Below, piece after piece: positions 7,224 through 8,886 of a DNA stretch of 64,000 bases. Source of the stretch: an uncultured Alphaproteobacteria bacterium. GTDB lineage: Bacteria; Pseudomonadota; Alphaproteobacteria; RF32; CAG-239. Both the position numbers and the translations under genes were made by a program. The notes under the pieces were generated by a model that saw only the letters and a list, made by a program, of their open reading frames with translations, had not been told where the DNA came from and did not search any database. The DNA lies in assembly GCA_910576955.1 (NCBI GenBank), contig CAJTJB010000001.1:238739-302738 (forward strand), given 5' to 3'. The stretch's first letter is position 1, and each line of letters opens with the position of its first letter.

Positions 7224-7248
7224 AAGGAGCCTAACGGCTCCTTTTTTT
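7224..7248. terminator. Bidirectional intrinsic terminator between convergent ileS and pilin-like gene 1
   Basis: Stem GGAGCC (7226-7231), loop TAAC, stem GGCTCC (7236-7241), then a T7 run on the plus strand and a T-rich tail on the minus strand. Confidence 0.7.
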
Positions 7249-7888
7249 AGTCGAACTCAATTGCTAACAAACATCCTGCATCTGTCAAACAAGTTGAACA
7301 AAGCTCTAAAACATCAGTCACTAATGCGTCTTTTATGCATAATCTCCCAGTAGTACAATACTTATCTCCGTATAATGCACCTCCGCTATTGTTTTCCCCT
7401 CTAAATATCCAAACAGATGATAAATCATTACTATACGGCTTTAAGACATCTAATATCATTAAACGGCATAACTCTTCTTTTCCCTTCTCATCATCTTTTG
7501 TTTTTAAGCGATAATCAAACACCAAATGATTATTATGGTCTCGTATAAATGTTCTTACATTATTATTCACACTATCTATCAGAACTGTTCCTTTTTGCGT
7601 CCACCCTTCAGGCATAAGCCCTGCTGCGGCTATATATGCTGCAATATCTAATGTTGCAGTTCCATCGCCCTTTTCTTTTTTAGCACGTATAAAACCGTCT
7701 TTATAGAGTAATAAATCTTGAATTAACTGGTTATATTCATTAGCTAATTTTATATATTTATGTTTTTTCATTGCTTTAGAAAAACCAGATATTCCACTAA
7801 CAGAAAGAATGCCCACTATCGCCAAAACACCCAGCATTTCTATCATTGAACGACCGAACTCGTTTGTTTTTAATAATTTCATTATCAA
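7247..7888 (-). CDS. Prepilin-like (class III signal peptide) protein, paralog 1. Type IV pilin or pseudopilin-like N-terminus with a Cys-rich C-terminus.
   Basis: N-terminus MKLLKTNEFG|RSMIEMLGVLAIVGILSVSGI has Gly at -1, Glu at +5 and a 20-residue hydrophobic helix. The C-terminus carries 5 Cys and ends ...CLLAIEFD. The track start is TTG at 7888; the probable ATG is at 7882. The gene is AT-rich. Confidence 0.6.
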   Translation of the reverse strand: MIMKLLKTNEFGRSMIEMLGVLAIVGILSVSGISGFSKAMKKHKYIKLANEYNQLIQDLLLYKDGFIRAKKEKGDGTATLDIAAYIAAAGLMPEGWTQKGTVLIDSVNNNVRTFIRDHNNHLVFDYRLKTKDDEKGKEELCRLMILDVLKPYSNDLSSVWIFRGENNSGGALYGDKYCTTGRLCIKDALVTDVLELCSTCLTDAGCLLAIEFD

Positions 7889-8134
7889 CTCCCTAAATTA
7901 TACAAAAAAAAGCCGCTTGATGAAAGCAGCTGGAAGTTGAAACCATTTGTGTGAAATGTGCAGTGTATTTGGCATATAAAAATATACCTTATTAACTGCC
8001 TTCCAGCCATCAGACCAAAAGGCAGTTTTTTACGCTCTATTTAAGCAACACACAAGAGGGTTTCAAACCTCATACAAGTTATCATCTTGTACAGGGAGAA
8101 GATATTTTAGAAAACAACGAATGTCAAATAAAAA

Positions 8135-8156
8135 AGAAACTAACGGTTTCTTTTTA
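8135..8156. terminator. Intrinsic terminator downstream of pilin-like gene 2 (read on the minus strand)
   Basis: Stem AGAAAC, loop TAACG, stem GTTTCT, flanked by A6 and T5 runs. It lies about 105 bp past the stop at 8260. Confidence 0.55.
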
Positions 8157-8259
8157 ACATAATGACCGCTCAACAACCACACAATATAATTAGTCACTTG
8201 CTCATTCATTCCTGACAGATATCGGCAATATCCGTGCCGGTGCGGCAGGTGTTCCCGAT

Positions 8260-8886
8260 TTAGTCAAAATCCAGTACAATTATGCACTCTTTTTCATCTA
8301 TGCAGGCGGTGCATATCTTTTGAACTTCCGTTATTGTCATATCTCGTATGCATTTGAACTCTTTGTCATCACAATGCTGATTGCCGTAATATGACTCCGT
8401 GCCGCCATAATCGCCGCGATAAACCCAGGCATAAAATAAACTGCCGCTTTGCGGCGTTACCACGTTCAGCCACATAAACCGACACAGTTCGTTCGCGCGG
8501 TTGCTCCCTAATGTAAAATCAATAATCAGGCGGTTAGTCTTATCCCGCACAAAGGGGCGAAAATAACTTCCGGTATTATCATATACATAATCCCCTTTAA
8601 CATCCCAAGTAGTTGGAAAATACGGCATTGACTTCAGATATGGCGCTATATTAAACATCTCGTCTTTGCCGGTTTTCTTTTTTGCATCTATCCAGCTTTC
8701 TTTAAAACGCAAAAAATCTTGCATAAACATATTATAGTCTTCGGCAATTTTATTATATTTATTTTTTCGCATTGCTTTCGAAAATTCTGAAATTCCGGCA
8801 ACGGATAAGATGGCAACAACAGCCAAAACGCCCAGCATCTCTATCATTGAGCGCCCTTTTGTATCTGAATAAAATAATTTCATCAT
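8260..8886 (-). CDS. Prepilin-like protein, paralog 2
   Basis: N-terminus MKLFYSDTKG|RSMIEMLGVLAVVAILSVAGI is near-identical to paralog 1 through ...FSKAM(K/R)K(H/N)KY. The C-terminus has a matching Cys pattern and ends ...CIIVLDFD. A strong AAGAGGAG ribosome-binding site precedes the ATG. Confidence 0.6.
   Translation of the reverse strand: MMKLFYSDTKGRSMIEMLGVLAVVAILSVAGISEFSKAMRKNKYNKIAEDYNMFMQDFLRFKESWIDAKKKTGKDEMFNIAPYLKSMPYFPTTWDVKGDYVYDNTGSYFRPFVRDKTNRLIIDFTLGSNRANELCRFMWLNVVTPQSGSLFYAWVYRGDYGGTESYYGNQHCDDKEFKCIRDMTITEVQKICTACIDEKECIIVLDFD

Follow-up and report, generated by a model that had tools for sequence, protein, structure and literature searches.

The stretch of DNA analysed here, 64,000 nucleotides from an uncultured Alphaproteobacteria bacterium (contig CAJTJB010000001.1; hereafter the window), carries two paralogous genes between ruvX and ileS, which we call gene A and gene B. 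In this study, we found that both probably encode precursors of type IV pilin-like subunits of a large family and that a structured RNA resembling a terminator/antiterminator switch lies upstream of gene A. An earlier note on this locus had described two open reading frames (ORFs) of about 210 aa with characteristic short leaders, and both are present on the minus strand, with products of 211 aa (A) and 207 aa (B). In each protein, a mature start of RSMIEMLGVLA(I/V)V follows a 10-residue leader. The two are 40% identical over their full length (E 1e-60), and the gene B product is identical to database protein P0001. The note had also given each gene its own ribosome-binding site (RBS) and terminator. 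A Shine-Dalgarno sequence does precede each gene and a hairpin does follow each, with the refinement that the hairpin of gene A is shared with the convergent ileS and that gene B has no promoter-like site of its own. Because gene B starts 8 nt after the ruvX stop codon and has neither such a site nor a leader RNA of its own, it is probably cotranscribed with ruvX; the hairpin downstream of gene B, which was too A+T-rich for the consensus terminator scan to detect, is probably the terminator of this transcript. The 370-nt spacer between B and A holds the structured RNA, which the earlier note overlooked (Table 1).

Table 1. Features of the ruvX-ileS region, in window coordinates
Feature	Position	Strand	Basis and remarks
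ileS	4034-7204	+	Convergent with gene A; Pfam tRNA-synt_1/Anticodon_1 on an identical contig
Bidirectional terminator hairpin, GGAGCC-guua-GGCUCC	7217-7241		T-runs on both strands; gene A/ileS junction; read from the sequence
Gene A, type IVb-like pilin paralog	7247-7882	-	211 aa from the ATG at 7882; RBS AGGGAG; program-made ORF 7247-7888 from TTG 7888
Leader peptide of gene A, MKLLKTNEFG	7853-7882	-	Putative prepilin peptidase cut between Gly codon 7855-7853 and Arg codon 7852-7850
Structured leader RNA, ~195 nt	7901-8097	-	Upstream of gene A; alignments and covariance model
Intrinsic terminator hairpin and U-run	7911-7931	-	3' end of the leader RNA; terminator scan and covariation
Arms of the alternative (antiterminator) helix	7928-8008	-	8000-8008 (GGCUGGAAG) pairs with 7928-7936 (CUUCCAGCU)
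Sigma-70-like promoter, TTGACA, 17 nt, TATCTT	8099-8127	-	Consensus scan; predicted function
A+T-rich hairpin AGAAAC-cgtta-GUUUCU and U-run	8130-8151	-	After gene B; read from the sequence
Gene B, type IVb-like pilin paralog	8260-8886	-	ATG at 8883 gives 207 aa; alternative ATG at 8886; stop codon 8262-8260; RBS GAGGAG
Leader peptide of gene B, MKLFYSDTKG	8854-8883	-	Putative prepilin peptidase cut between Gly codon 8856-8854 and Arg codon 8853-8851
ruvX (YqgF)	8895-9359	-	Directly upstream of gene B, same strand; Pfam RuvX

The amino-terminal signal

The earlier note had pointed to Gly at position -1, Glu at +5 and a hydrophobic helix of about 20 residues as hallmarks of a class III (prepilin peptidase) signal, and it had called Arg at +1 atypical. 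For statistics on this signal, we collected 156 distinct copies from related loci. These loci had been fetched by patterns within MIEMLGVL.../AI[VI]G..., which begin at Met+3 and leave Gly-1, Arg+1 and Ser+2 outside, so that positions -2 to +2 are unbiased by the search. Gly-1 is present in all 156 copies, as it is in both window genes, and so are Ser+2 and Met+3. The +1 residue, which is mostly hydrophobic in class III signals, is Arg in 155 copies and Lys in the remaining one; the atypical Arg is real and family-wide. Position -2 is occupied by 17 different residues, and the boundary between variable and invariant positions lies exactly at Gly-1. An alignment of 51 homologs agrees with the hallmarks named in the note: G10, R11, S12, M13, I14, E15, M16, L17, G18, V19, L20 and A21 are invariant or at least 90% conserved, with Glu+5 (E15) invariant and the hydrophobic helix of about 20 residues next to it, as in class III signals. 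Homologs without conservation of Gly-1 and Glu+5 were what the note had expected to see if the N terminus were an ordinary signal anchor, and the homologs conserve both. The N terminus of the family is thus a short variable leader followed by a nearly invariant G↓RSMIEMLGVLAIVG....

The leader is 10 aa long in both window genes and 8-10 aa long in other copies that carry no repeat insertions. In many copies from relatives, one to three palindromic repeats are inserted between a normal start (MYKNFEK... or MNKNLK...) and the Gly. The reading frame stayed open in all nine cases examined, with 27-118 residues before the Gly, and repeats were never found after it; neither window gene has any. Anything is tolerated before the Gly and nothing changes after it, as a cleaved leader predicts. 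As a natural experiment, the restriction of these in-frame repeats to the leader marks the cleavage site, and the comparison of copies indicates that the precursors would be cleaved between Gly and Arg.

Eight of the copies carry in-frame repeats that resemble repetitive extragenic palindromes or Rickettsia palindromic elements, exemplified by ggattgcttcgcgttgctcgcaatgac and ttcttgggataaacccaagaatgac: locus L036 at 9842-10000, L037 at 9779-10006, L038 at 9645-10000, L055 at 9785-10000, L057 at 324-663, L060 at 10788-10945, L075 at 5559-5671 and L080 at 9744-10000. The open frame before the Gly spans 37-118 residues in these eight. At L036, the insert is preceded by GRS and followed by GKS, as if the target had been duplicated. 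We considered whether the leaderless-looking copies of relatives could be silent cassettes and rejected this explanation, because they keep a canonical RBS and ATG and their frame is open through the inserted repeats.

Cysteines, fold and head domain

The conserved C-terminal cysteine cluster described earlier consists of six aligned residues in the C-terminal third of the proteins (C139, C176, C182, C195, C198 and C204 in gene A; C134, C171, C178, C191, C194 and C200 in gene B), all of them invariant or at least 90% conserved among the 51 homologs. The set is complete in 297 of 377 family members. Where cysteines are lost, they behave as three pairs. In gene B numbering, C171 and C178 are jointly missing from 38 of the 377 members and C194 and C200 from at least 13, while C134 and C191 are nearly always kept. 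This pattern of co-loss suggests three disulfides, C134-C191, C171-C178 and C194-C200. In type IVb pilins, the C-terminal D-region is delimited by a disulfide. A four-cysteine zinc site (C-x6-C ... C-x2-C) was rejected because the cysteines are lost as the pairs 171+178 and 194+200 and not as a foursome.

Confident AlphaFold2 models built on the 51-sequence alignment (predicted local distance difference test scores, 87.6 and 87.3) consist of an N-terminal helix of about 60 residues, from residue 11/12 to 70/71, and an alpha/beta head. The best structural matches of both models are type IVb pilins. Alignments to cryo-electron microscopy structures of the pili cover 157 residues for CofA and 156-157 for TcpA, at 11-17% sequence identity; the heads share the type IVb fold. 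Mature lengths of 197 aa (B) and 201 aa (A), with a family median of 204 aa, fit the type IVb range of about 180-200 aa. Modelling had been proposed in the earlier note as a check for a pilin fold, and its result agrees with the class III-type signal and the long helix in upholding the description of these proteins as pilin-like.

Other pilin classes were compared as well. Neither Pfam Bundlin (PF05307) nor PilS (PF08805) matched the window proteins at E<=10. Weaker database matches have an identical GRSMIEMLGVLAIVG N terminus with different heads; some of these sister subfamilies do match Pfam Bundlin or PilS, in favour of the pilin reading. As for the pseudopilins GspG-K of the type II secretion system (T2SS), the proteins have no T2SSG or other Pfam match and the window has no gsp genes; the name "type II secretion system protein" that the Prokaryotic Genome Annotation Pipeline gives to some homologs probably reflects only the N-terminal domain. 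Flp/Tad pilins are about 50-80 aa long with a G↓xxxxEY motif, whereas the window proteins are about 200 aa long with G↓RSMIEM. A smaller relative is encoded at locus L010 (10001-12626), where a 148-aa pilin with the same GRSMIEML N terminus (Pfam PilS), is conserved on many contigs. Next to it downstream come a 100-aa ORF, a gene for a family-2 glycosyltransferase and a 293-aa ORF, and the cluster may be a pilin glycosylation unit.

Size and distribution of the family

A profile search over 1.84 billion representatives returned 702 clusters at E<=1e-30 and 4470 at E<=1e-10; at 50% identity, the family amounts to 700 clusters or more. In species-representative genomes, the matching loci numbered more than 576, of which 80 were kept. 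Most of the 80 come from metagenome-assembled genomes (MAGs) that bear the label uncultured Alphaproteobacteria and derive from the guts of humans, deer and other hosts. Four bins carry the labels Bacteroidaceae or Eubacteriales, which we take to be wrong. Counts of distinct full-length copies reach at least 43, 28, 20 and 15 in individual MAGs. In the richest one, the first 30 mature residues are 93% identical and the heads 27% identical (medians). The copies are dispersed singly or in small groups among housekeeping genes, for example at fabG/mraZ, topA/sufB and gyrB, and housekeeping genes, not a pilus operon, form the context at every locus inspected. The literature searched yielded nothing relevant on the motif RSMIEMLGVLA or on the pili of RF32 or Alphaproteobacteria. 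The family, its invariant Arg+1, the scale of its expansion and its leader RNA have no description in Pfam, NCBIfam, Rfam or this literature; the pilin-like kind of protein itself is known.

Assembly machinery and the nature of the proteins

The earlier note had seen no assembly machinery near the genes and had proposed a hunt for peptidase, T2SS and type IV pilus (T4P) loci. We ran this hunt on the window and about 1.5 Mb of related loci by tblastn and phmmer, with E. coli GspC/D/E/F/G/L/M/O, HofB/C and PpdD as queries. The 64-kb window indeed contains no T4P/T2SS ATPase, platform protein, secretin or prepilin peptidase by tblastn, phmmer or Pfam on about 40 ORFs, and Pfam returned housekeeping genes only for about 30 further window ORFs. 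In the related loci, the hunt yielded a single component, a lone 317-aa ATPase of the T2SSE family (Pfam, 112 bits). Across the nearest 46 database clusters, of which the closest listed are named Alphaproteobacteria MAGs, its identity is at least 79%. PilT/ComGA models match it best, and weakly, and it is not assignable to PilB, PilT, GspE, TadA or VirB11. Its neighbourhoods in three lineages contain no other T4P genes. The gene lies at L028 19348-20301 (the same as L065 18298-19251, minus strand), L099 8365-9318 and L097 10001-11290; more distant relatives have forms of 400-460 aa that are about 60% identical.

Several observations weigh against reading genes A and B as filament subunits. A prepilin peptidase (Peptidase_A24), a platform protein (GspF/PilC) and a secretin were found neither in the window nor in the 1.5 Mb of related loci; these loci are a small fraction of each genome, which makes the absence of other machinery parts uninformative. 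The ATPase gene always stands alone, and its product scores far below every NCBIfam cutoff. The profile searches for N-methylation domains suggested earlier gave matches that stay below the curated cutoffs, with 13.4 and 13.0 bits against 21.2 for PF07963 (N_methyl) and 11.6 and 15.1 bits against 16.3 for TIGR02532. Foldseek gave no significant match in the PDB, and the family profile matched only N-terminal helices among PDB sequences, plus BfpA at E 0.47. The invariance of residues inside the fetching patterns is partly by construction in the fetched loci. Finally, characterised pilins mostly have Phe, Met or another hydrophobic residue at +1 (Phe in type IVa; Met, Leu, Val and others in type IVb), and we know of no characterised pilin with Arg there. 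In the Pseudomonas pilin mutagenesis of Strom and Lory, Gly-1 was reportedly critical and many residues were tolerated at +1; Arg+1 need not block cleavage.

The subthreshold N_methyl scores, the atypical Arg+1 and the missing peptidase would also suit an ordinary uncleaved signal anchor or Sec signal, whose resemblance to a class III signal would be coincidental. We regard this as very improbable, given that Gly-1 and Glu+5 are invariant, that the switch from variable to invariant residues falls exactly at the Gly, that only the part before it tolerates arbitrary in-frame insertions, which reach about 100 residues, and that both models have a pilin fold. In addition, the weak Pfam and NCBIfam matches of both proteins, which cover the N terminus only, are all to prepilin families.

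A second alternative accepts the pilin-like character and denies the filament. The proteins could be of the pseudopilin type, processed or unprocessed and either anchored in the inner membrane or singly surface-exposed, with the helix as an anchor or export tag and each variable head as a module for binding or sensing. They would then resemble the large orphan prepilin-type families of Planctomycetes (DUF1559). Mature residues 1-30, the filament core of type IV pili, are nevertheless 93% identical and Glu+5 is invariant, which exceeds the needs of a membrane anchor; the heads have the fold of the filament-forming type IVb major pilins, over the 156-157 residues aligned to CofA and TcpA; and a T2SSE-family ATPase is conserved in the lineage. 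This alternative does account for genomes with dozens of scattered paralogs and no machinery next to them, for a platform protein, secretin and peptidase unseen in the sampled DNA and for extremely diverse heads, but we consider it rather unlikely. We favour, with some confidence, the reading that both genes encode precursors of type IV pilin-like subunits of an undescribed family, found here only in uncultured gut Alphaproteobacteria, together with the filament and leader switch outlined below.

A structured leader RNA upstream of gene A

The RNA upstream of gene A follows -35- and -10-like boxes that occur at the same place in an alignment of 17 copies. It consists of a 5' hairpin (P1), a long-range closing helix (P2/P3, 8050-8071 with 7933-7951), the internal hairpins P4, P5 and P6/P7 and then a terminator about 25 nt before the gene A RBS. 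RNAalifold on the 17 copies gave 52 pairs in eight helices, 23 of them with compensatory changes. Alignment cells were paired at 96.2%, compared with 33-47% when the partners were slid, and the covariation score was 0.40, compared with 0.04-0.10. An alignment of 47 sequences fitted to the covariance model has double changes at 44 of the 52 pairs; for the terminator helix, they affect three of five pairs among the 17 sequences and all five among the 47. The window RNA has a minimum free energy of -67.4 kcal/mol (z -6.2). The covariance model detected 48 copies in 1.4 Mb from related genomes, and in 46 cases a G↓RSMIEML gene of the same orientation lies 40-360 nt downstream; of the other two copies, one stands before another gene and one before a decayed copy. 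That other gene, behind the RNA at locus L020 (451-657, minus strand), is a non-pilin ORF (MSETVKKYDYVLYLGKLCHG..., downstream at 1-450) with no significant Pfam match, so the RNA is not strictly tied to pilin genes.

In an alternative helix, positions 8000-8008, which form the 3' arm of P5, pair with 7928-7936, a stretch that covers the 3' end of P2 and the terminator's 5' arm. This helix is mutually exclusive with P5, the P2 3' arm and the terminator 5' arm. Its cells are paired at 92.9%, against 21-48% with partners slid, and its pairs covary (GC:9/AU:7, UA:14/CG:3 and GC:9/AU:2). In its comparative anatomy, the leader RNA looks like a terminator/antiterminator switch and is a candidate new regulatory RNA. 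Rfam 15 gave no relevant match at E<=1 for window positions 7000-9500 and none at E<=10 for L032 10550-11000; only chance-level matches to unrelated families appeared. A peculiarity of the window copy is that its terminator T-run continues into TGTATAAT (7902-7909, minus strand), an extended -10-like box about 20 nt before the gene A start. Since the other copies lack this box, it may be there by chance.

Origin of the gene pair

The earlier note had taken the pair for a horizontally acquired A+T-rich insertion. The pair is more A+T-rich than its flanks, as stated there, with GC contents of 0.338 (A) and 0.394 (B) against 0.469 for ileS, 0.473 for ruvX and 0.426 for the whole window. Across the family, mean GC is 0.382 against 0.416 in the flanks, 3.4 points lower, and it is lower in 79% of 151 copies, so low GC is a property of the family. 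The nearest relative, locus L025, has an IleS that is 90% identical and keeps the synteny pynP-slt-ruvX ... ileS. There, a pilin copy that is 32% identical to gene A and has the same leader RNA occupies the same place beside ileS. In the ruvX-ileS gap of L025 (6605-9717), three unrelated ORFs, one of 156 aa and a paralogous pair of 422 and 437 aa, stand in place of gene B, which indicates that the gap is plastic. The 422- and 437-aa ORFs carry an HEGTH (HExxH-like) motif, and a Pfam scan of the 156- and 422-aa ORFs gave no match.

A recent A+T-rich island between ileS and ruvX would fit the contrast of 0.34-0.39 with 0.47 in GC content and the plasticity of the gap, and we consider it improbable. 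It is opposed by the family-wide low GC, by the pilin copy and leader RNA of L025 and by the finding of the family only in this uncultured gut Alphaproteobacteria lineage, with up to 43 or more copies per genome. No homolog exists among 72,556 plasmids, and the phage collections gave no real homolog; two faecal contigs labelled as phage matched the N terminus only. In the sequence read, we noticed no integrase, no tRNA and no direct repeats at the flanks. At only 40% identity, A and B are not a recent tandem duplication. Collectively, horizontal acquisition is unsupported, and the genes are better described as members of a lineage-specific family.

Other genes of the window

Two very large envelope proteins are encoded near the pilin pair: an autotransporter of about 1849 aa (BigA_3rd and Autotransporter, on the identical contig L001) occupies positions 1-3900 on the minus strand and runs off the window, and a 1734-aa AsmA/DUF748 protein is encoded at 13395-18599 on the plus strand. 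Window ORFs of up to 853 aa without a Pfam match at E<=1e-5 lie at 20540-21232, 22272-24084, 26181-27356 and 28663-31224; more lie at 34129-34890, 48359-49909, 54820-55764 and 62086-63333.

Proposed mechanism and significance

In the model that we favour, a prepilin peptidase, so far unseen, would cut the precursors between Gly and Arg on the cytoplasmic face, and the helix would anchor each subunit in the inner membrane. A type IV filament machine would then polymerise the subunits through their shared helix. The machine would be dispersed and may include the lone T2SSE-family ATPase, the sole candidate component found. Through the many paralogs, the filament could present a range of different surfaces, for adhesion or for antigenic variation in the gut. 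Gene A would be expressed by read-through of its leader RNA, in which the terminator competes with the covarying antiterminator helix, so that the RNA would be either a riboswitch or an attenuator that depends on a protein; gene B would probably be cotranscribed with ruvX. A more specific version, which we put forward tentatively, is that the ~195-nt leader either represents a new class of riboswitch or is acted on by a dedicated antiterminator, and that it gates dozens of Arg+1 type IVb-like pilin genes. Such a system would vary the filament surface in response to a signal, and it would use a dispersed, highly divergent machine with a peptidase that accepts, and perhaps N-methylates, Arg.

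The carriers of the family are known here only as MAGs, and the literature searched yielded nothing on their pilins. The family comprises hundreds to thousands of type IVb-like pilins and reaches 43 or more copies in one genome, which points to a major unexplored surface structure that may play a part in adhesion or immune evasion in the guts of humans and animals. The invariant Arg+1 extends the range of class III signals and predicts a prepilin peptidase, and possibly a methyltransferase, of unusual specificity. With covarying terminator and antiterminator helices, the leader RNA is a testable candidate for a new class of regulatory RNA tied to pilin expression.

Comparison with known systems

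The closest structural relatives, CofA of the CFA/III pilus of enterotoxigenic E. coli and TcpA of the toxin-coregulated pilus (TCP) of Vibrio cholerae, differ from the window proteins in several respects beyond their identity of 11-17%. Both have Met at +1, where the window proteins have Arg, and one Cys pair, where the window proteins have six Cys and three putative disulfides. They are encoded in a pilus operon, which for type IVb pilins includes the ATPase, platform, secretin and peptidase genes, and there is one major and one minor pilin, whereas the window genes are not in a pilus operon and their family has tens of paralogs per genome. Type IVb pilin leaders are long, about 15-30 aa (roughly 25-30 aa in CofA and TcpA), whereas those of the window proteins have 10 aa. 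The PilS pilin of Salmonella Typhi, the R64 thin-pilus pilins and the bundlin BfpA (PF08805 and PF05307) belong to Pfam families that the window proteins do not match, and the family profile reaches BfpA only at the E value given above. The orphan prepilin peptidase-dependent proteins PpdD and PpdA-C of E. coli are of type IVa size (about 140-160 aa) with a hydrophobic +1 residue and few copies, and all window scores against them are far below cutoffs.

The DUF1559 proteins of Planctomycetes are a large orphan prepilin-type family with many dispersed paralogs, a conserved class III N terminus and variable heads. The window family resembles them in its many dispersed paralogs, its conserved class III-type N terminus and its variable heads and differs in lineage, head fold and motif (GFTLIEL-type versus GRSMIEML). 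We know of no leader RNA for DUF1559-type families. Rickettsia palindromic elements are selfish repeats that lie in frame in coding genes. The leader repeats of the relatives' pilin genes are likewise palindromic and in frame within coding sequence, but they have other sequences and occur only in the stretch of the protein that is presumably removed.

In Clostridioides difficile, a cyclic di-GMP riboswitch sits upstream of the type IV pilin gene pilA1, the known precedent for a riboswitch at such a gene. Two papers connect the cyclic di-GMP riboswitch with type IV pili in that organism (PMC6200980, PMC6366702). Like that riboswitch, the window RNA is a structured 5' leader with a transcription terminator, and it is proposed here to control a type IV pilin gene. 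Unlike it, the window RNA has no match to the cyclic di-GMP or any other Rfam family, is built of a closing helix around three internal hairpins and is repeated before many pilin paralogs.

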